IMG/VR virus record: IMGVR_UViG_3300013414_000053
Location: 25,685-89,684 of that record
Length of the DNA: 64,000 bases
From: a virus
Lineage: Duplodnaviria; Caudoviricetes
Direction: 5' to 3' (one strand)
Position 1 is the first letter of the stretch; the number at the start of each line of letters is the position of its first letter. The notes below the pieces were generated by a model. It made no database searches, was not told the origin of the DNA, and saw nothing but the letters and a program-made list of their open reading frames with translations. Shown piece by piece: positions 3,985 to 57,629 of the stretch. A program made the translations under genes and the position numbers.

Positions 3985-4888
3985 TCCCAGTAAAGTCAAA
4001 ACCCAATTTGGCAAGCATTTCTACGAGGGGCAACGATTAGGTTCTCATCGGGAGAGATTGTATCAGCAATGGCTTCGTAATCAAGGTGGTGGTAGCGTTA
4101 AAGGACGTGCCACCTTCCCGAAGCAATATAGCAAATACTTCAGCTCTGGTACAAAATTCACCACTCGACAAGGCCATATTGCTCCTTGGGCCAAACCTAT
4201 GACTTTGAAAGGAGGCTCAAATCCCAACTATAACTGGGGAAGAGTAAGCTATATCAATTCAAAAGGTTTGGTCAGTAAGTCCTCATCCAGTGGTCGTTGG
4301 GGTGCTGATACCAATCAGGGGAAAAGAGGCGCCGGTGGTTCAGCTACAATTCTTAATGGAACAAAGCAATGGATAGGACAAATTCAAATCAGTCAGTATG
4401 CTCTTCGTGTGCAGGCAGAAAACTTTAGGGTTGTAGTCGGTCGAAGAGCAATGAAAGTGTTTCAAAATTCTTTCAAATATCAGCAATTCTATAGTAATCG
4501 CTCTCGAAGATGGACTCCGCTTTCCCCCTATACTCTAAAGAAACGTGCGAAAAGAGGTACTGGCAGTCGAATCCTCAAAGAATATGGGGATTTGTATAAC
4601 TCAATCAAACTGGATGAAAGTGCTGGAATGGGACGTACCAGGGTTTACACTGATATTGTGCCGGCCAATGCTGGTCATCATAAAAAGCACAGCATCTGTT
4701 ACGCTGGTTATCACAATGAGGGTAAAGGAACCTATGGTAGTGCATGGAATGGGCATAAACCCAAACCATATATAAAACGACAATTTATGGGCCACTCCAG
4801 TTACTTAAATCCATTTACCGATAGCTTTATGCGCAAAATGATGAAGCTATACCTCTTTGACAGTGTGTTCCTTATAAAGAAAACCTAA
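3965..4888 (+). CDS. Virion morphogenesis protein (Mu gpG-like) with long basic N-terminal extension
   Basis: WTPLSPYTLKKR...RILKEYGDLYNSI...YAGYHNEG...KRQFMG. Confidence 0.75.
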   Translation: MSRQKFDPSKVKTQFGKHFYEGQRLGSHRERLYQQWLRNQGGGSVKGRATFPKQYSKYFSSGTKFTTRQGHIAPWAKPMTLKGGSNPNYNWGRVSYINSKGLVSKSSSSGRWGADTNQGKRGAGGSATILNGTKQWIGQIQISQYALRVQAENFRVVVGRRAMKVFQNSFKYQQFYSNRSRRWTPLSPYTLKKRAKRGTGSRILKEYGDLYNSIKLDESAGMGRTRVYTDIVPANAGHHKKHSICYAGYHNEGKGTYGSAWNGHKPKPYIKRQFMGHSSYLNPFTDSFMRKMMKLYLFDSVFLIKKT

Positions 4889-8157: not shown

Positions 8158-8514
8158 ATGGGTAGAAGCAAAAAAACCGAAACAGCAAAAGCCGAAGAAG
8201 CAGTTGTGGTTGACGTTCAGGTGAGCGAAGAGGTAACACCCTCAGAACCTACTCCAGAAGCGGAAGCACAGCCGTCAAATGAAATCGAAGAGGTCGAAGA
8301 AGCTCCTAAGATTGCTAAAGAGGTGAAAACCTCAGCAAAGAGCGAGCCGGCCGAAGAGATTTCCCCTCGTGAAGCAGAGCTGATGCGCCTTTATCCCCAG
8401 TATGAGAAAATCTGGATTACTCCCAGAGGATTTGTACATCCCGAAGGAACTCCAGCCTATCTGCTGAAAGGTGCTAAACTTTTCAAAAACAAATTTTTCA
8501 ACAATAAAAAGTAA
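8158..8514 (+). CDS. Hypothetical protein, acidic low-complexity N-terminus
   Basis: ATG 8158; between capsid and sheath. Confidence 0.7.
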   Translation: MGRSKKTETAKAEEAVVVDVQVSEEVTPSEPTPEAEAQPSNEIEEVEEAPKIAKEVKTSAKSEPAEEISPREAELMRLYPQYEKIWITPRGFVHPEGTPAYLLKGAKLFKNKFFNNKK

Positions 8515-48247: not shown

Positions 48248-48815
48248 TCCTAAATGGCGGTTTACACAGAGCGGTATGGTTGCACTCTATATTCAAAATG
48301 GGTTGCAACAACTACCGGCTTTGTTCGGTGTCTCAGATATTGATGATGAGCGAATTGTTGATTATCTGGTGTATCAGATATACCGATACCGGACATCTAT
48401 TGCTAATGGCTCCTGGCAGTATAATTATCTGTTTTCTCAGGCGGCCTTGGAGAAATATCGAAACCAATTCCTTAGCACTGATGGTAAATCAGGAATGAAT
48501 TTCTATATCAATCAATGGTTGGATGAGGCTGAGTTATCAAGAGGTCAGCTTACCTCGATGATTACAAAGCCGAAACCCAATCCATTGAGGAAAATGGTTT
48601 ACCTTGCCTCTGAGGAACCCATAAAAAAGCGGTTTCTGAATACGAATGAGGGATTGGCCTTGTGTCAACGGTCAACGACCGGCTGGAGTCCGCTTTCAGA
48701 GGCTTGTGGACGATGTGATAACTGGGTGGAGTGTGGCAAAATGACCGCTAAGAAGTACCCAGAGCTTATGCGGTACAGAAAAGAAGTTTATCATCATGAC
48801 AGGAAAGAAAAATGA
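48180..48815 (+). CDS. Hypothetical protein with C-terminal Cys cluster
   Basis: 211-aa ORF between sigma and helicase. Confidence 0.7.
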   Translation: MELQEKTIKVRQMIETVVKRTIDPKWRFTQSGMVALYIQNGLQQLPALFGVSDIDDERIVDYLVYQIYRYRTSIANGSWQYNYLFSQAALEKYRNQFLSTDGKSGMNFYINQWLDEAELSRGQLTSMITKPKPNPLRKMVYLASEEPIKKRFLNTNEGLALCQRSTTGWSPLSEACGRCDNWVECGKMTAKKYPELMRYRKEVYHHDRKEK

Positions 48816-50154
48816 AAACGTCTTGACATCTGAGTTCCTTGCGGAGCTATATAATTGTGCCATTACCAACAATCAGGTGTGTTCGGTGGTGTGCCGTTAT
48901 ATGGATAATTCATTTCTCCCGGATCCGCAGTATCAGCTACTCAATTCCACTCTGAAAGGGCATTTCAATGAATATAAAACGGCCCCTCAGTATGGTATAA
49001 TCTCCCAGCGTTTATCTTCATCACGAGCTGTATCTGAATTGCTGGAGGAAATCAAAGAGGTTGCTACCAGTGTAAATCCTGAGAGTATTCGAGACCAATT
49101 TGAAGAGTATCTGAAACTGGTTCAGTTCAAGAAAATCATCAAAGAAGTCAATAAGAAATACGAGGATGGCGAGCGTATATCAGCAATGATGGCGTTTACC
49201 AAAGAAGCATTGAAGCTCCAGCAGTTCTCACTAAAGCCGGAAGAGTTTATAGACATCGCCCAGACATACGAAGAGCGTTTGCGCGAAAACAAGGTGCGCA
49301 ATGAAAACCCGGTAGCTAAGATGGTCAATAGCTTCTATATTGATGGCCTCGATGAGATGAATCAGGGGCGTAATCTTCGCACTCAGCTTTCTCTCTTCTT
49401 GGCTATGTCTGGTGTCGGTAAAAGTCACATTGCTCGCTGGATTGGCTATAATGCTGCTTACATCAGTGGTCTTGATGTACTCCACATACAGTTAGAAGGC
49501 ACTGCTTCGGAAACCACAGATGCGTATTCTGCAATGTTGAGTGGAACCACCACCTATGAATATGAGAGTGGTAAAGTCAACAATCATACGTTAGAGCATC
49601 TGAAAAGTATGCTCGACACCTACAAAGGCACTTTGAGAGTAAAGGCTTACCCTAAGTTCGGCAAGGAAGTTTCGACCACTGACATCAGAACCGACTGTGA
49701 TAAATACCGTGAGAAATATGGCAAATATCCAGACGTGATCATCGTTGACTCGCTCGATCTCTGTACCGATTCTTCGGGTAAGAATTGGGATTCTAAATCC
49801 TTACGTCACAAGCGTATCGCAACCGCTCAGGACCTGAAGGATTTGGCCGGAGAAACTGATAGCTGGCTCGTTGTCACTTATCAGGCCACGATTGAAAATC
49901 CTGACTGGGTGAATGATGAGAAGAATGTGCTTACGGCTTTCAACACCTCAGAATGTAAAGGACTCCAACGCCCTTGTACTCATTTGATTTCTCTCAATCA
50001 GAGTAAAAAAGAGTATCGAGAAGGCACTATGCGCCTTTATGCCGACAAGTTCCGCTTCTGTAAAAAGGGAGAGCCTTTCAGAATTGCTCTTGATTACGAA
50101 CATGAGGTGTTTTATGACCGAGTGCGTACTCTCAATCTTCCCCAAGAGTCTTAA
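48796..50154 (+). CDS. dnaB: DnaB-like replicative helicase
   Basis: LAMSGVGKSH Walker A, IIVDSLD Walker B, TYQA motif. Confidence 0.88.
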   Translation: MTGKKNENVLTSEFLAELYNCAITNNQVCSVVCRYMDNSFLPDPQYQLLNSTLKGHFNEYKTAPQYGIISQRLSSSRAVSELLEEIKEVATSVNPESIRDQFEEYLKLVQFKKIIKEVNKKYEDGERISAMMAFTKEALKLQQFSLKPEEFIDIAQTYEERLRENKVRNENPVAKMVNSFYIDGLDEMNQGRNLRTQLSLFLAMSGVGKSHIARWIGYNAAYISGLDVLHIQLEGTASETTDAYSAMLSGTTTYEYESGKVNNHTLEHLKSMLDTYKGTLRVKAYPKFGKEVSTTDIRTDCDKYREKYGKYPDVIIVDSLDLCTDSSGKNWDSKSLRHKRIATAQDLKDLAGETDSWLVVTYQATIENPDWVNDEKNVLTAFNTSECKGLQRPCTHLISLNQSKKEYREGTMRLYADKFRFCKKGEPFRIALDYEHEVFYDRVRTLNLPQES

Positions 50155-50199: not shown

Positions 50200-51219
50200 A
50201 TGATTATCACACCAGAAATGCAACAATCCATCAGAGAAGAGCTGCTATATGATTTAGGCGGCAAGATGGATGGTTCAAGACGAAATATATTGGTTCCTAA
50301 TTGTCCTTTCTGTGGGCATGATGGCTTCAAATATGGTATCTATGTCGGTAATAATGTCGGCAAGAAGCGGTTTGGTATGTCGAATTGCTACCATTGTAAC
50401 CGTCGTTTCGGCTCTTTGAAAGAGACTTTGAAAGCCTTGGATCGTGAGGATCTGATACCGGCAGAAACAGCGGAACTTGATGACAGTGAGACGGACATCT
50501 CAGCTATGCTGGATGATGAGATTGATGATGATCTCGTTGAAATCACCATGCCTCGTGGGTATAAGCGTTGTTACAAAAACTCATATCTCAAATCTCGTGG
50601 CTGGGAAGTAGATGATTATGAGTATTTTCCTGTCGGCACAAACCGTTCTATTGAACGAGAATATCAGGATTACATAATTCTTGAAGTTCGAGATGAAGGC
50701 CGGACTGTTGGGTTTGTGGCTCGCAGTATTCTCAGCAAAGAAGAGATTGACAGCTACAATTCCAGACATCACTTTAAGATTCGTCGCTATAAAAATTCCG
50801 ATGAACGTGATGGTAACGGCTTTGCAAAAATGCTATACAACTATGATGCGATTGAGGTCGGCACCACACATTCAGTAATTCTTTGTGAAGGTCCGTTTGA
50901 TGTGGTTGGTCTCAATCGCAAGTTGGAGCTTTATGATAACAAACATATAGTTCCCATAGCTACTTTTGGAAAGAAGATTTCTCAGGAACAGATGTACAAG
51001 CTCCAGAAAAAGGGGGTGGAACAGATTGTCATCGGTTATGATAATGATGCAAAGGAAACCACATCTAAAATTGCAATGGAGCTTGATAAATACTTCGATG
51101 TTCTGATTGCTGATATTCCTGATGGTGTAGGCAAAGATTGGGATGAAATGGATGTCGAGGACATTTATGATGTCTTTGCCTATAATCTTAAAACGGTTAG
51201 AGAATTTAATCTTGGATAA
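50200..51219 (+). CDS. dnaG: DNA primase
   Basis: CPFC...CYHC zinc finger; CEGPFD and GYDND TOPRIM motifs. Confidence 0.88.
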   Translation: MIITPEMQQSIREELLYDLGGKMDGSRRNILVPNCPFCGHDGFKYGIYVGNNVGKKRFGMSNCYHCNRRFGSLKETLKALDREDLIPAETAELDDSETDISAMLDDEIDDDLVEITMPRGYKRCYKNSYLKSRGWEVDDYEYFPVGTNRSIEREYQDYIILEVRDEGRTVGFVARSILSKEEIDSYNSRHHFKIRRYKNSDERDGNGFAKMLYNYDAIEVGTTHSVILCEGPFDVVGLNRKLELYDNKHIVPIATFGKKISQEQMYKLQKKGVEQIVIGYDNDAKETTSKIAMELDKYFDVLIADIPDGVGKDWDEMDVEDIYDVFAYNLKTVREFNLG

Positions 51220-51220
51220 G

Positions 51221-52981
51221 ATGAAAGAGGTAGTATCATTAAAAGAATGGCTGGATAACCATAACATCACTTACTCTTTGCGTAAGGACGTGGTTGTCAT
51301 TCCTGGATTTGGCCGTTGTCTTATTCAAGATGATTATGACCACATCTTCAAACAAACCAAAGAGGGGAATGTGGTATTCAACAGCATTGAGAATTATTCT
51401 TATCTGATTGCAGATGAGATATATTATATAGTTTTTCCGTTTGGCTGCCGGTGGTTTTACATTGATGTTCGTAAAGATCCATCGGAAGTCCAATTCAAAA
51501 TTCTGCGGTATGTGGGCAATACCCCCACATTCCAACACGAATGTGAATTTTATCCTTTAGGTATTCATTCCGGGTATGAGTTGTTGAATGGCAGTGGCTT
51601 ATTGAAGGACTGGTGTACTAAAACTAAGTTCTTGGGCTACAAAGGGCTGGCTGTGTCAGATAGGAATACGATGGCTGCATCTTTGGATTTGCAGCAGTCG
51701 GCTACTGATGCTGGTCTAAAATACTGTTTCGGATATTCATTAACCGTGCGTACTGGTAAGGATAAGGTTGGTGTAAAACTCTACTCAGCTACTCAGCAGG
51801 GGTTTAAGAATATGCTGCGTATTCAGAAAGCTATAGCGGTAGATAACTATGAAACAAAAGAGATAGACCTAATCACTCTTCTTAATCTTGCTGAAGGCAA
51901 TACCTTGGTGTTTGATAAGTGGAGTGGCCATTGGCTCGCCGAAAATAAGAACGCCCTTCAGGATTTTGTTGAAGCATTTGATGGTTGGGTATTCTTTCAG
52001 GTTGACACTTCAGAATATCGAGCTGATAGAATTGACTCCGCATTACTGCAAAGCCAAAAAGCATATTTCGATAACTTTTATCAGGGCAATCTGGAGTATT
52101 CAATGAATATTCGACCAGTTCTAATCCAAGATGTTTACTATTTGGATAAAGAAGATTGGCGTACCAAGGTTATTCTCAATAAGGTTGACACTGGGGCTGC
52201 CCATGAGCAATCATACAAGCAGTATCTCAAAACTATTGATGAGATTTATGATGAGTTCCGTGCTCTCTTCTCCGATAGATATGACGATGATGTTTTCTAT
52301 GATATGTGTGAAGCGACTGCTGACATTATTGAAAACGCTTCAGCTGCTTATGATCTTAGTGATAACTATGCTCCCAAGTATGATATGACTCCTCAGGAAC
52401 GTGAGAAGTATGGTGATACTTTGACTATGTTCCGATCATTGATTGAGGAAGGATTTAAGAAACTGGTTCCTGAAGGAGAGGAAGAGGAATATCGGAAGCG
52501 TGTCGAATATGAGAAGTACGTTATTGAAAGCACCGATAATGTTGATTATTTCCTTATTCAGAGAGATGAACTGAACTGGGCCCAAGAAAATGGTATCTTG
52601 ACTGGAATTGGTCGAGGCTCTGCCGGTGGGTGCCTACTACTCTATCTTATGGGTATCACATTTATTGATCCCCTGAAATATGATTTGATTTTTGAGCGTT
52701 TCTTGTTGCCGGAGCGCGCCGGTCTGGAGCCGGATAAGGTAACTGTTATGGCCGATGATATAGAGTCCTCAGATTACTTTGAGTTGGCCTTAGATGATGA
52801 TAAGATACTCTTGCTCGATAAGGATGCTGAGTTAGTTGTGATCAGAAATGGTGAGCAGCTGACCGTATATGCAGATGAGTTGCAAGAAGGTGATGACATT
52901 CAGTTCGATAACTGTGATATACTTCACACCTTACCCAAGAAACTTCTGCATGAAAATTCGGGCAATAACTCACAAAACTAA
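51221..52981 (+). CDS. dnaE: DNA polymerase III alpha, N-terminal half (PHP domain to FERFL) ending in Hint-like fragment
   Basis: GIHSGYELLNG, GLAVSDRNT, GIGRGSAGG, DPLKYDLIFERFLLPER. Confidence 0.9.
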   Translation: MKEVVSLKEWLDNHNITYSLRKDVVVIPGFGRCLIQDDYDHIFKQTKEGNVVFNSIENYSYLIADEIYYIVFPFGCRWFYIDVRKDPSEVQFKILRYVGNTPTFQHECEFYPLGIHSGYELLNGSGLLKDWCTKTKFLGYKGLAVSDRNTMAASLDLQQSATDAGLKYCFGYSLTVRTGKDKVGVKLYSATQQGFKNMLRIQKAIAVDNYETKEIDLITLLNLAEGNTLVFDKWSGHWLAENKNALQDFVEAFDGWVFFQVDTSEYRADRIDSALLQSQKAYFDNFYQGNLEYSMNIRPVLIQDVYYLDKEDWRTKVILNKVDTGAAHEQSYKQYLKTIDEIYDEFRALFSDRYDDDVFYDMCEATADIIENASAAYDLSDNYAPKYDMTPQEREKYGDTLTMFRSLIEEGFKKLVPEGEEEEYRKRVEYEKYVIESTDNVDYFLIQRDELNWAQENGILTGIGRGSAGGCLLLYLMGITFIDPLKYDLIFERFLLPERAGLEPDKVTVMADDIESSDYFELALDDDKILLLDKDAELVVIRNGEQLTVYADELQEGDDIQFDNCDILHTLPKKLLHENSGNNSQN

Positions 52982-53033
52982 TACCTCTCTTGTTTCAGAT
53001 TGCTATGCCGGCGACGGATATGTGAAACGCAAT
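52724..53033 (+). other. Degenerate split-intein-like (Hint) halves at the DnaE split
   Basis: N part ...YFELALDDDKILLLDKDAELVV...YADELQEGDDI; C part MKIRAI...VSD...DGYVKRN; no N-terminal Cys/Ser, no TxxH, +1 residue His. Confidence 0.65.
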
Positions 53034-55946
53034 CACGGCTCTCTTCCTGATATTGATTCTGACTTCAGTGCGGTTCGCCGTGATGAGGTAAAGGCATATT
53101 TGGAAAGACGCTATAACAAAGACGGTCTCCAGCGTGTCTTTTCAGCTGGTACATTTACAACTGAGAAGATAAAGTCAGTCATCAAAGACGTGGCCAGAAC
53201 TCATAAAATTTCTCAGGCTACCACCAATTATCTGACAGCGATTCTGGATGATAATATGACGTGGACCGACCTGATGAAGATGGCTTCCACAGACAAACGT
53301 ATGAGGGATTTCATTCAGAAATATCCCGATGTGTTTGAAGAGATATTACCGATTATGGGGCAAGCTCGCTCTGCCGGTATTCACGCCTCCGCACTTATCA
53401 TCACTCCAGAATATGTCAAAGGAGAGCGTGTGGAATGTTTTGACCTACTACCTATCCGAAAGATGGGCGACCTGTTGGTATCTGAGATTTCAGGTAATGA
53501 TATTGATGCTATTGGTATCTTGAAGAATGACGTACTGGGTATTAAGGAGCTTACCAGACTTTCAGATACGCTCAATCTTGTTGAGAGTGAGTATGGGGTC
53601 AAGTATAACATTCTTGAAATCGCTTCTAAGTATCTGAATGATGAGAAGGTATTTAAGATTATCCGTGAGGGCAATACTCAGGGCGTGTTCCAGATGGGTG
53701 GCGAGGGTATCACCAAATTCGTCAAACGTCTGGCTCCGGATAATATTAATGACCTGATTGCTTCTGTTGCGCTGTTCCGTCCAGGTCCTCTCGACTCTGG
53801 AGCTGCTGATAATTATGTTCGTGCAAAGCGAGGTGAATATGAGCCAACCTACTTATGGGGAACTTATGAAATCTTGAAAGATACTTTTGCTCAGATGGTT
53901 TATCAGGAGCAGATTTCTCGTGTGGCTCAAAAGGTTGGTGGCCTTAGCCTTGGTGACGGTGTGAATCTTGTGAAGGCTCTGAGTAAGAAAAAACTGGAGA
54001 AAGTTCGTAAGTTTCAAGCTAAGTTCTTTGCCGGAGCCAAGCAAAACGGGTGTCCTAAAGAAGCTGCTGATCAAATCTGGAGCAATGTGGAAGATGCTGC
54101 AAAGTATTCTTTTAATGCTTGTATCGCCGGCCACGAATACTTGTGGGGCAGACATAAGGAGAAAGGTGCTGGCACTCGTATCAATATCGGTGATATGTGG
54201 CGCACCAAAAATGACTATGAATGGGCTAAAGCCAACAACCGTCTTGGTCTTAGAAATAAGTATCGGAAGTTCGGCTATGGCACTTGTTGGTCTTTGAATG
54301 AAGATGAGAAGTTGGTCATCAACCGCATTGTGGATATCCGTTATCAGGGTGTTCGCCCAGTATATCGTATTACATTGGCAAATGGCAGCACGATTGATGT
54401 AACCGACAATCATAAACACCCGACATTGGATGGCCAAAAGCGTACTGATGAGCTTATCCCCGGCGAGGATTTTATGTATATCCGTGTGGGTTGGATTAAG
54501 GAAGATACAACCTATCGGTTTATTGACAAGGGTAAATTGAACAATCCCAGGTATCATTCAAATGATAATGTGGAGGCCCACAGCATCAATGCGCAGAAAG
54601 GTCATCAGGGTTTTATGACTCGTGACTCCAATTATACAAAGCTGGAGTATTATAAGCAGCATCTGAAGAAAGATCACTGTGAGAAATGTGGCAAGCATTT
54701 GAAGCGACTGGAGATTCATCATATCAATGGCGATCATTCAGATGTCGGGGAAAATTACTCCAATATTCAGACCTTATGCCCAAGTTGTCATAAGAAAGCT
54801 CATTATGAAATGGGCCGTGTAAAGATGGGCCGTAAGGGTCTTGGCACTGCTGTGGTTCAGGTAGTATCAGTGGAATATCTTTGTGATACGGCAGTGTATG
54901 ATGTAGAAATGGAGCATCCATACCATACTTTCCTTACTGGGAAGGGGGTTGTGACGTGCAATTCTCACGCTACAGCTTATGGGTTGACGGCTTATGTCGG
55001 TGCGTGGCTCAAAACTTACTATCCAACTGCTTTTTATACTGTCGTTCTACGAGACCAAGATGAGGATAAGATGGCAGTTCTTATGAATGAAATCAAGACT
55101 GTCGGTGGTACGGAGCTGGAGAAGCCAAACATCAACATCTCAGGTGAAAATTTCACGGCAGACTTCAAGAATAATAAGATTTACTGGTCTTTATCTCGCA
55201 TTAAGCAATTAGGTCCTAAAGCGGTTAAGTATATCGTTCAGGAGCGTAATCTGTATGGTGAGTTTTATGACCTGGAAGATTTTATCAAGCGTATCTTCAA
55301 AAGCAAGTTCAAGAACTTTGATGATGAAGGGACGGCAGAGACTCGTGAACGCTGCCCGGTGACAGCAAGAAGTGTTCGTAATCTGATTTTTGCTGGAGCC
55401 TTTGATGCTTGCGAAAATGTTGGCTCAGTTCTGGAGCGATATGGCTTATTAGAAAAGGCTGCTACTCTTTTAGGATTTAAGCTGACTGAAAAGGATATTC
55501 CTGAAGAAATGCGAGATAAGCATTACTGGTGGAGTCGTCAGCAAATCACTGTTTCTGGTCACGGCACTATTGATTATCGTAGGATCTATGATAATATGGA
55601 GAAGCCAAAGAGTGTTTCAGCAAACAAGTATATCGAGTTCTCAGACCTCAGCAATATGTTCTATGAAGTCCGAAAAGGTGTCATTTGTGCCGCTATCTGC
55701 TCTGTTACTGATAAATCCTACAAGGATAAACGAACTGGCGAAACTAAGCACTTTGGCAAAATCGAGCTTCAGCAAAATACTGAAACTAATATCCTTACCA
55801 TCTGGGATGATTGGGATATTTGGAAAAAGGAGCTGAAGAAAGCAGAGGGCCGAATGATCGTTGCAGTAGTAAATGTAAAATGGAGTGATTACGATGAGAA
55901 GAACACTCTTCAAATCGGCAGAAGCTCATTCTTAAAGTTGATTTGA
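52950..55946 (+). CDS. dnaE: DNA polymerase III alpha, C-terminal half with intein
   Basis: ATG 52950; SLPDIDSDF, GIHAS, LKNDVLG, LFRPGP, VYQEQ, FNA/SHA, SLSRIKQLG. Confidence 0.93.
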   Translation: MKIRAITHKTNTSLVSDCYAGDGYVKRNHGSLPDIDSDFSAVRRDEVKAYLERRYNKDGLQRVFSAGTFTTEKIKSVIKDVARTHKISQATTNYLTAILDDNMTWTDLMKMASTDKRMRDFIQKYPDVFEEILPIMGQARSAGIHASALIITPEYVKGERVECFDLLPIRKMGDLLVSEISGNDIDAIGILKNDVLGIKELTRLSDTLNLVESEYGVKYNILEIASKYLNDEKVFKIIREGNTQGVFQMGGEGITKFVKRLAPDNINDLIASVALFRPGPLDSGAADNYVRAKRGEYEPTYLWGTYEILKDTFAQMVYQEQISRVAQKVGGLSLGDGVNLVKALSKKKLEKVRKFQAKFFAGAKQNGCPKEAADQIWSNVEDAAKYSFNACIAGHEYLWGRHKEKGAGTRINIGDMWRTKNDYEWAKANNRLGLRNKYRKFGYGTCWSLNEDEKLVINRIVDIRYQGVRPVYRITLANGSTIDVTDNHKHPTLDGQKRTDELIPGEDFMYIRVGWIKEDTTYRFIDKGKLNNPRYHSNDNVEAHSINAQKGHQGFMTRDSNYTKLEYYKQHLKKDHCEKCGKHLKRLEIHHINGDHSDVGENYSNIQTLCPSCHKKAHYEMGRVKMGRKGLGTAVVQVVSVEYLCDTAVYDVEMEHPYHTFLTGKGVVTCNSHATAYGLTAYVGAWLKTYYPTAFYTVVLRDQDEDKMAVLMNEIKTVGGTELEKPNINISGENFTADFKNNKIYWSLSRIKQLGPKAVKYIVQERNLYGEFYDLEDFIKRIFKSKFKNFDDEGTAETRERCPVTARSVRNLIFAGAFDACENVGSVLERYGLLEKAATLLGFKLTEKDIPEEMRDKHYWWSRQQITVSGHGTIDYRRIYDNMEKPKSVSANKYIEFSDLSNMFYEVRKGVICAAICSVTDKSYKDKRTGETKHFGKIELQQNTETNILTIWDDWDIWKKELKKAEGRMIVAVVNVKWSDYDEKNTLQIGRSSFLKLI
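54120..54962 (+). mobile_element. Intein (281 aa) with HNH homing endonuclease
   Basis: Begins CIAG after YSFNA; TDNH block B; CEKC...IHHINGD...NIQTLCPSCHKKAH; VYDVEM block F; ends VTCN before SHATAY. Confidence 0.93.
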
Positions 55947-55947
55947 T

Positions 55948-56847
55948 ATGTCGTTTCTTATTGACATACGCGAGGAACTGGATGATCAGGTTCAGAAACA
56001 GCTTCGCAAGTTTAGGCAAGAATGTGCTGGTACCGGCTATAATGGCTGGTACCGGATTCAAGCCGCCATTGCCAAAGCTCGTGATTTGACCATCTACCAC
56101 GATAAGATTGAGAATTTTATAATGCCCAATCTCTTTGATGAAAATGGAGATGCGATTGCGTGGTATCACTGGCGTGACCCCCAACAAGTTCAGGTCAATA
56201 TGATAAAACGTAATCTGCAAACATCTTCTAAAGCCAGCAGAAAACGTGGTCGTGTCACTCCGACCAGATTACGAATGCTGATGAAGGAGATTCTGGACTA
56301 TAGAATAAACGAATACTTAAATCCCAAACAAGATATGGCTAAACTTAAAATTTTGTGTATTGTAGGTGGCTCAGGCTGTGGCAAGACTTTGGCCTCATTG
56401 CACCTCAAATACCATAAGGATGCAAATGTGATTTGCTCTTTTACCACCAGACCCCCCAGACCTACGGAAGTGGAGGGGAGGGATCACCATTTCATTGACA
56501 TTGTACCAGACCGAACAGAGCTGATTGCCTATGCTCACTTTGGTGGATATTATTACTATGCTACCAAATGGCAGGTATTTGGTCCTTGCACCGTCTATGT
56601 CATTGATGAGAAAGGACTTGAAAATCTGCGCAATGACTTTGGTGATGTCTATGACATCTATACTGTCTTGATTAAGCGAGATAAGGCTCTTCGCCGGAAA
56701 TCTGGCATAGATGAAACTCGTTTGCGTCGAGATGAACGTCGTGACCTGAAAGATGAGGATTATGACTATGTGATTGTCAACAACGGCAAGAAAGCAGCTC
56801 TTTTTGAGAGCATTGAGTGTATCTACGAAGAAATAAAAAACAAATAA
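55948..56847 (+). CDS. Guanylate kinase-like protein with 129-aa unrelated N-terminal extension
   Basis: CIVGGSGCGKT, SFTTRPPRPTEVEGRDHHF; kinase part starts at in-frame ATG 56335. Confidence 0.8.
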   Translation: MSFLIDIREELDDQVQKQLRKFRQECAGTGYNGWYRIQAAIAKARDLTIYHDKIENFIMPNLFDENGDAIAWYHWRDPQQVQVNMIKRNLQTSSKASRKRGRVTPTRLRMLMKEILDYRINEYLNPKQDMAKLKILCIVGGSGCGKTLASLHLKYHKDANVICSFTTRPPRPTEVEGRDHHFIDIVPDRTELIAYAHFGGYYYYATKWQVFGPCTVYVIDEKGLENLRNDFGDVYDIYTVLIKRDKALRRKSGIDETRLRRDERRDLKDEDYDYVIVNNGKKAALFESIECIYEEIKNK

Positions 56848-56849
56848 TT

Positions 56850-57629
56850 ATGGCAGCTCCAGTTGAAAAAGGAAATGTTGTTACTCTAATCTTCTATGAT
56901 TTTGAGACAGGGGGGAGAGAATGTACCAGATGTGCAGCCACCCAAATTTCTCTTCATGCAGTACGTCTTGACACGTTTGAAGTAATGGATAAATATTCGG
57001 CTTATATTTATCCTTATAACAAAAAGAACGTGGACGCTAAATCTAAGCGCAAGGTTCTTAAAAATAAGTATGAGAATGACTCAGAAGAGTTAATGGATTA
57101 TGAGGATGCAGCATTGGAATATTCCCATATTACAATGGATATGCTCTATTCTTTGGGTAAGCCTTTGGAAGAAGTGTGTCAGGAAATATGTGATTTTGTG
57201 GAGCGCAATACCTTCCCGGTTGTTGCAAGTAACAAACCATTTATGGTTGGTCAGAATCCTTTATTTGATAAGGGATTCATGCAGCAAATTATGCTCTATT
57301 CTGGTCTATGGAGCCGTTTTTGCAAACTGGTAAGGGGATCCAAAGATTTCTGGGGTAACTTCCAACCTGCCCAACTTGACACTATCATTCTTGCCCAGTT
57401 AGCTTTGGATAATGATAAGAGTATTAATACTTGGCGATTGGAGTCCATTGCAGAACGCTTTGGAGTTGACTTAGACGATGCTCATGATGCAGATGCTGAC
57501 GTTACAGCCACCAGAGAAATTGTCAGAGTGCTTACAGCAAGGATGAGAGAACAATCAGCTGGTGGTAATGCTGTCGGAAGTTTGGCAGCTGAAAAGCAAG
57601 AAAAACTTAGAGATCATTTCAAAATTTAA
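56850..57629 (+). CDS. DnaQ-like DEDDh 3'-5' exonuclease
   Basis: FYDFETGG, GQNPLFDKGF, AHDADADV. Confidence 0.88.
   Translation: MAAPVEKGNVVTLIFYDFETGGRECTRCAATQISLHAVRLDTFEVMDKYSAYIYPYNKKNVDAKSKRKVLKNKYENDSEELMDYEDAALEYSHITMDMLYSLGKPLEEVCQEICDFVERNTFPVVASNKPFMVGQNPLFDKGFMQQIMLYSGLWSRFCKLVRGSKDFWGNFQPAQLDTIILAQLALDNDKSINTWRLESIAERFGVDLDDAHDADADVTATREIVRVLTARMREQSAGGNAVGSLAAEKQEKLRDHFKI

Follow-up and report, generated by a model that had tools for sequence, protein, structure and literature searches.

Inteins are usually viewed as selfish elements, which either splice or are deleted. A polymerase divided where its relatives carry an intein is reportedly known from Methanothermobacter thermautotrophicus, whose B-family enzyme, in work attributed to Kelman and colleagues in 1999, is said to be encoded by two genes and to assemble non-covalently; no intein remnant has, to our knowledge, been reported at that break. 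In 'fractured genes', as set out by Dassa et al. (2009; PMC2677866), adjacent gene halves carry natural split inteins, and a free-standing gene for a homing endonuclease lies between them, the examples including three DnaE loci, gp41, NrdA/NrdJ and IMPDH. The cyanobacterial DnaE intein (Wu et al., 1998, and Caspi et al., 2003, both cited in PMC2677866) is catalytically intact and trans-splices the products of two genes lying far apart into one chain. The present analysis concerns a phage dnaE, the gene for the alpha subunit of DNA polymerase III (Pol III alpha), that is carried as two overlapping genes with a degenerate, split-intein-like module at the break. It lies in the last 64 kb (hereafter the window, meaning the whole stretch of DNA that was analysed) of the 89.7-kb IMG/VR virus record IMGVR_UViG_3300013414_000053, which is 81% complete; most of the sequencing runs in which this stretch occurs bear the label mouse gut metagenome. 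The module is probably a domesticated split intein that acts as a non-covalent clasp, holding a two-chain DnaE together.

The locus shares much with the described systems and departs from them in its chemistry. As in the fractured genes (PMC2677866), a phage replication gene is found in two pieces on one strand, with intein-N sequence ending the first half and intein-C sequence starting the second. The tail of the first half is also homologous in sequence to N-fragments of the split inteins found in ribonucleotide reductase (RNR), and some relatives have an endonuclease gene in the gap (GIY-YIG/NUMOD1 or HNH/NUMOD4), although the window has none. The inteins of fractured genes nevertheless splice, with five catalytic residues intact (Cys1, the block B Thr and His, the terminal Asn and the +1 residue; PMC2677866), whereas the phage module retains at most the +1 Ser and is about 25-50 residues shorter. 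With the cyanobacterial Ssp and Npu DnaE inteins it has in common a Pol III alpha encoded by two genes and a Hint domain in two parts, of which the N-terminal one is acidic and the C-terminal one basic. The insertion point differs, and in the window the FN-SH motif is taken by a live HNH intein (54120-54962). The M. thermautotrophicus polymerase, unlike the phage DnaE, is an archaeal PolB.

The first of the two genes, the dnaE N-half, occupies 51143..52981 on the plus strand if the longest open reading frame (ORF) is taken (612 aa), and public gene calls start it at ATG 51167 (604 aa). It encodes a PHP domain (PF02811) and the first part of the palm (PF07733 positions 3-100), and runs to FERFLLPER (52691..52717, plus strand), the last canonical DnaE motif ahead of the break. 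After PER the reading continues for 87 residues (52718-52978) to a stop codon at 52979-52981. This tail comprises an intein-N-like (Hint) core of 69 residues (52718..52924, plus strand), which is strongly acidic, carries D-K-D-A at the block B TxxH site and has the terminus ADELQEGDDIQFDN-D-L, and a C-terminal extension with the stop codon (52925..52981, plus strand). The extension is clade-specific, poorly conserved and missing from most relatives, and its final 32 nucleotides (nt) overlap the start of the second gene. That gene, the dnaE C-half (52950..55946, plus strand), begins at ATG 52950 in the +1 frame relative to the N-half. It opens with an intein-C-like head of 31 residues (52950..53042, plus strand; MKIRAI...V-S-D-C...G-Y-V-K-R-N-H-G-S), of which the first 16 are basic. 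LPDIDSDF, the catalytic aspartate motif of C-family polymerases, follows directly (53043..53066, plus strand); the PDID aspartates we take to be catalytic from established knowledge of Pol III alpha. The remainder supplies the rest of the palm (PF07733 94-260), the fingers (PF17657), an HhH domain (PF14579) and one live intein. The positions of the Pfam DNA_pol3_alpha profile are shared out over the two genes, 3-100 in the first and 94-260 in the second, so that one domain has been cut in two, and the DnaE domain set (PHP, palm with PDxD, fingers, HhH) is complete when both genes are read together. An initial annotation, made from the sequence alone, had described dnaE as two overlapping genes in different frames, and its coordinates and sequences were confirmed.

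It is clear that the break is not an assembly error. The interval 52300-53400 is identical in contigs from three DNA studies, whose runs may include the source sample; independent of these are the many homologues and a strain-variant contig from a metatranscriptomic library, which shows 43 substitutions and no gaps over the same interval. The same split arrangement is seen in L004 and L005, two 99% identical loci that come from other samples. An Rfam scan of 52000-54000 (E-value, hereafter E, <= 10) for a group I or other intron at the junction returned chance matches only. Megablast of the locus against GenBank phages gave no match, and relatives were reached by tblastn.

The division extends far beyond the window's own clade. 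The tail, used as a query (residues 505-612), matched 711 proteins at E <= 0.01. Among the 120 tail-matching proteins listed, lengths run from 379 to 604 aa and are mostly 570-604, which identifies the tail-bearing proteins as stand-alone N-halves. A profile was also run against 1.84 billion cluster representatives, and the full-length DnaE-type matches that were inspected all end with the tail. Eighty IMG/VR loci were fetched, both halves being visible in 62, and the halves lie on different ORFs in 62 of 62. Their spacing varies by lineage: the halves overlap by about 30 nt in the clade of the window, are 0-10 nt apart in other lineages and 250-600 nt apart in further ones. Larger gaps contain genes: an N6/N4 DNA methylase in a gap of about 720 nt (e.g. 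L049 8733-9491), a PIF1-like helicase, in some cases accompanied by a small Cys-rich ORF, in gaps of 1.3-1.55 kb (e.g. L051 8730-10022), and a helicase plus a GIY-YIG/NUMOD1 endonuclease in a gap of 2.5 kb. Free-standing homing endonuclease genes stand between the halves in L064 (10047-11270; GIY-YIG + NUMOD1) and L003 (7644-8399; HNH_3 + NUMOD4). The same division is found in isolates: the halves of Cellulophaga phage phi13:1 are gp038 and gp039, one base apart, and those of Bacteroides phage BS-TP1 have a 'Dda-like helicase' gene between them. All 28 aligned heads start with Met (23 MK[IV], 4 MRI and 1 MVV). Two details of these loci may be recorded separately. The Cys-rich ORF ahead of the gap helicase is about 65 residues long (L054 8713-8907; L048 8712-8915) and weakly matches the beta chain of ferredoxin-thioredoxin reductase. 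In L003 (MT835494.1, marked UNVERIFIED) the head ORF (8398-8510; MKVTNV...) stops just before D-I-D, with the remainder of the C-half in another frame, probably through a one-base error in the record.

These relatives also bear on whether the two ORFs might be fused in translation, through +1 frameshifting programmed within the 32-nt overlap, or be the product of a sequencing or assembly indel. The ORFs of the window's clade do overlap, and the frame of the second gene is open from 52869; with 0.25-2.5 kb and whole genes separating the halves elsewhere, however, and with the Met start of the head conserved everywhere, a programmed frameshift is ruled out as a general mechanism. An indel might appeal to the database protein P0175, the single one in which tail and head are read through in one frame, but the contig from which it comes (L084) is shredded into small ORFs, and no indel is present in the contigs of the three DNA studies or in the diverged RNA-library contig. 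P0175 was accordingly discounted as indel noise and not accepted as a contiguous natural form. Frameshift and indel together form an explanation to which we attach almost no weight.

On profile comparison, the tail is homologous to intein splicing domains, as the initial annotation had proposed from its intein-N-like pattern. The tail profile (alignment A2, 27 sequences) was searched against the same 1.84e9 proteins, and among its matches beyond the DnaE family, which have E of 2e-6 to 9e-4, are proteins whose C-termini are true split-intein N-fragments. Ten of these non-DnaE matches were scanned, and most of the ten also match Pfam Intein_splicing. The proteins ending in such N-fragments are RNR halves (P0172, P0182, P0168, P0169, P0179) and PolA halves (P0160, P0167), whose N-fragments have Cys1, a T/S/A-x-N/D-H block B and the same terminal ...DEL-x-EGDDI motif as the tail. 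Since P0160 and P0167, which are family-A polymerase fragments from metagenomes, carry catalytically intact split-intein N-fragments with a block B region much like that of the DnaE tail, fractured PolA genes would appear to share this intein lineage. Alignment of A2 with the RNR split-intein N-fragment P0172 by hhalign gave a probability of 97.2% and E 3e-11 over 44 columns, with the D-K-D-A of the window opposite T-H-N-H. Against PDB sequences the two best matches are both inteins, PI-PkoII (E 0.027) and the Pab PolC intein (0.089), in the same block. The Pfam family PF14890 is touched by 18 of the 27 tails, with a best E of 1.1e-4, below the gathering score, and hhalign of the tail profile with the window's own live intein gave no significant match.

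The two pieces were modelled both singly and together. AlphaFold2 (AF2) gave the tail alone a predicted local distance difference test score (pLDDT) of 53, unusable for a fold search. In a relative, L036, the TAA of the tail and the ATG of the head are in frame and two codons apart; reading the TAA as Gly yields a 110-residue fusion, P0186, which was folded with an alignment of unpaired tails and heads and reached pLDDT 82.4 with a predicted template-modelling score (pTM) of 0.73. Residues 65-75 of the tail were modelled at low confidence. All 50 of the 50 Foldseek matches listed for P0186 are inteins, bacterial intein-like (BIL) domains or hedgehog Hint domains (best E 1.4e-3, TM-score 0.51). 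A VIA search, independent of Foldseek and covering 48,161 chains, placed 28 Hint chains on top at Z 7.7-3.2, the first unrelated chain following at Z 3.0; the best match is PI-PfuI (Z 7.7, root-mean-square deviation 5.0 over 91 residues), and the gp41-1 and NrdJ-1 split inteins are among the Hint chains. The first residues of the model align to about residue 25-50 of real inteins, which points to a truncated Hint domain, about 100 residues long instead of 125-150. Complex prediction with the window's own tail and head returned 'weak support', an interaction prediction score from aligned errors (ipSAE) of 0.57 against 0.01 for the best control, a result that may reflect likeness only, since solved split-intein complexes exist. 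Of 80 solved complexes 58 reached the mark concerned, as did 2 of 110 mismatched pairs; with an ipSAE of 0.60 or under, only 7 of those 80 reached it, and both of the passing mismatches fall in that range. Contact agreement between runs was at least 96%, and partner pLDDT was at least 61.

Judged from the residues at its active positions, the module has lost the chemistry of splicing. Junction residues were counted in 44 distinct tail/head pairs, of which 34 have Ala and 10 have Gly after PER, Cys being found only in a few other lineages; in the window PER is followed by Ala, Gly and Leu. The initial annotation had read this Leu as the replacement of Cys1. Loss of the nucleophile stands, but the position does not: given the Ala/Gly column across the family, Ala518 is the better candidate for the old position 1. 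The block B Thr-x-x-His is absent, its place being taken by D-K-D-A in the window and D/A-x-D-A/S in the family, opposite TSGH of PI-PkoII, and on this point the earlier reading of DKDA for TxxH was borne out by both the family alignment and hhalign. At the other end, the head runs into LPDID through G-S/T in 43 of the 44 pairs and G-V once. This conserved ending makes Ser31 of the second gene more likely to be the old +1 residue than the His first suggested, and the conserved Ser is likely the former +1 nucleophile. The residue before it is a near-invariant Gly, not the terminal cyclising Asn (or Gln/Asp), generally with a His ahead of it, of a class 1 intein. The Asn of KRN in the window, three residues earlier, had been taken for the last residue of the intein; it occurs in only 10 of the 44 pairs, and that assignment falls.

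The conserved Ser is also part of DnaE in an unsplit relative that lacks the module. Chryseobacterium phage MA9V-3 (L088, PV245944.1, 2986-6543) has a DnaE of 1186 residues, 31% identical to the N-half of the window, and at the site it reads uninterrupted as FERFLNEGRVGK-SLPDID (...GRVGK-SLPDID), with no insertion. The presence of the Ser in such a protein fits an intein that once lay exactly at this site, and MA9V-3 is a useful outgroup for the pre-intein state. A different condition is seen in Bacteroides phage DAC19 (L089, MT074139.1, ~4222-4440), whose unsplit DnaE of 1275 residues is interrupted at exactly this site by a contiguous stretch of about 60 inserted residues (GRVA ... GHI-SLPDVD); the stretch might be what is left of the same ancestral intein, further reduced and unsplit.

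Class 3 inteins lacking a residue-1 nucleophile exist (PMC2807308), and it might be supposed that the module still ligates the halves by an unorthodox, for example class-2/3-like, route to give a single-chain DnaE. The Ser or Thr conserved just before LPDID could then act as the +1 nucleophile, but it is preceded by a Gly that is unable to cyclise, the window's Asn is present in only 10 of the 44 pairs, and the Ser is itself a DnaE residue in unsplit relatives. In class 3 inteins the residue-1 nucleophile is replaced by a triplet of Trp (block B), Cys (block F:4) and Thr (block G:5). Most heads have a Cys beside the invariant, block-F-like Asp17 (blocks were assigned by eye), yet in several lineages it is A, S or T. 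In a few lineages Cys directly follows PER (L003, L087, P0142, P0149), but TxxH is replaced in these as everywhere else, and the heads that were seen, those of L003 and L087, are without a terminal Asn. A less decayed and still active version was sought among these Cys1 lineages; L087 has the Cys after PER, with no TxxH and no terminal Asn. Continued ligation is on this evidence decidedly improbable, and with the splicing residues lost the halves most likely dock without being joined.

Both pieces of the module are under constraint. In comparison with relatives that are 77-90% identical in the tail, pN/pS (the ratio of nonsynonymous to synonymous differences) amounts to 0.09-0.15 for the tail core and 0.06-0.15 for the head, with synonymous differences of 0.4-1.0 per site, which are near-saturated. 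Such strong purifying selection indicates that tail and head are both translated in these frames and constrained. Met at the start of the head, Asp17 and Gly23 are invariant, and Tyr24, Gly30 and Ser31 nearly so. The tails are acidic, with a mean net charge of -10 (-17 in the window, over a 73-residue stretch that ends 4 residues past the core), and the first 16 residues of the heads are basic, with a mean of +3.3. An acidic N-piece with a basic C-piece is the pattern of canonical split inteins. The locus has the architecture of a naturally split intein, with an N-fragment ending the first half, a C-fragment starting the second, a conserved active-site motif and opposite charges.

Selection of this strength is also what a functional surface of another kind would produce, and the Hint remnant might have been kept for a job beyond or besides docking, such as binding a replisome protein or DNA near the active site, or gating assembly, with the palm halves associating largely by themselves. 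The tail carries, beyond its Hint-like core, an invariant acidic motif, DDI-x-FD-xx-D-x-L (tail residues 59-69, 52892-52924; D59, D60, D64, D67), which lies in the region modelled at low confidence, and DAC19 keeps its contiguous insertion where no clasp is needed. In every DnaE with this tail, however, the break falls precisely within the module, where canonical split inteins are divided; a confident fold requires both pieces, and the charge complementarity is conserved. Another job of this kind is therefore judged unlikely, though less so than ligation or frameshifting.

Several points do weigh against the clasp. Association of the palm halves could depend chiefly on their own interface, the Hint remnant being kept for another reason, and the clasp gives no account of the conserved DDI-x-FD-xx-D-x-L motif. 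What was modelled is an artificial fusion, made from a relative by reading through its stop, and not the two chains of the window; the VIA Z-scores are middling (7.7 and below), the truncated start of the model leaves the assignment of 'position 1' uncertain, and the prediction of the tail-head complex is a weak pass. The head by itself has no sequence match to intein C-fragments: its 33-position profile found nothing at E <= 10 among PDB sequences, and hhalign against the intein-C-bearing P0172 likewise gave nothing. The head is too short for sequence statistics, so that its identity rests on position, pattern and the fold model.

The clasp is nonetheless the preferred reading. It was proposed in the initial annotation, and all three of its predictions that could be checked computationally held: a Hint fold is obtained from tail and head, in the relative's fusion, and from neither piece alone; a large clade of phages shares the split, the Met-Lys-Ile-type start and the missing catalytic residues; and the tail is a homologue of true split-intein N-fragments. 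Neither reads nor reliable homologues show a continuous ORF. Docking itself is what we infer from them. A clasp would hold the halves, no covalent product would form, and the heterodimer would be the active enzyme. More broadly, we lean towards seeing here a natural, obligately non-splicing split-Hint pair, the end point of a fractured gene, which serves as a dedicated module of heterodimerisation and builds an essential polymerase's active site in hundreds of Bacteroidota phages, from gut Bacteroidales to marine Flavobacteriia.

The best-supported history begins with an intein that would have inserted before the Ser of SLPDID, one turn ahead of the catalytic aspartates. The gene would then have been fractured inside the intein to leave a split intein, with homing endonuclease genes still lying in the gap of L064 and L003, after which the split intein would have lost catalysis and shrunk to about 100 residues. 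The pair may have been kept since acidic tail and basic head could still co-fold into one Hint-like domain, which would hold the cut ends of the palm side by side and so give an active two-chain polymerase with no peptide bond between the halves. The gap would finally have become a landing site for other genes, or have closed to an overlap, as may have happened in the window.

The C-half also contains a canonical intein of 281 residues with an HNH endonuclease domain (54120..54962, plus strand; PF14890, PF01844), inserted at the FN-SH motif. It has Cys1, a T-D-N-H block B, a terminal Cys-Asn and Ser at +1, and the polymerase can thus be said to hold one live intein and one dead one. Presence of this live intein fits the greater length of the C-half ORFs in the closest relatives (L004-L017), and its absence fits the C-halves of about 690-730 residues in more distant ones. 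The surrounding genes form a replication module, with a DnaB-like helicase (48796-50154) and a primase (50200-51219) ahead of dnaE. A guanylate-kinase-like gene (55948-56847) follows the C-half, and its end overlaps by 31 nt a DnaQ/RNase T-like exonuclease gene (56817-57629, plus strand), two genes downstream of dnaE, whose product is a likely proofreader for the split polymerase. The 89.7-kb record, at its 81% completeness, yielded no PolA or PolB domain, and the two-gene DnaE is the phage's only detectable DNA polymerase.

The initial annotation knew of no described system of this kind, and in agreement with it the literature search turned up nothing published on a non-splicing or degenerate split intein that joins the halves of a phage DnaE. 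Two surveys of bacterial C-family polymerases make no mention of one; in these surveys inteins were excised or fragments rejoined, and phages are outside their coverage. In current annotation the halves are commonly labelled separately, as 'DNA polymerase' or 'PHP domain protein', although together they should be taken for a single enzyme. At about 100 residues, a minimal Hint pair which perhaps binds without reacting would be of interest to protein engineering, for orthogonal dimerisation tags or 'capture and collapse' without catalysis. The arrangement bears on the tolerance of C-family polymerases for a foreign domain one turn from the catalytic aspartates. If the clasp is real, a fractured gene can turn into a permanently two-subunit one, and a split intein kept through hundreds of lineages after the loss of its chemistry would plainly exemplify domestication as a structural docking module.

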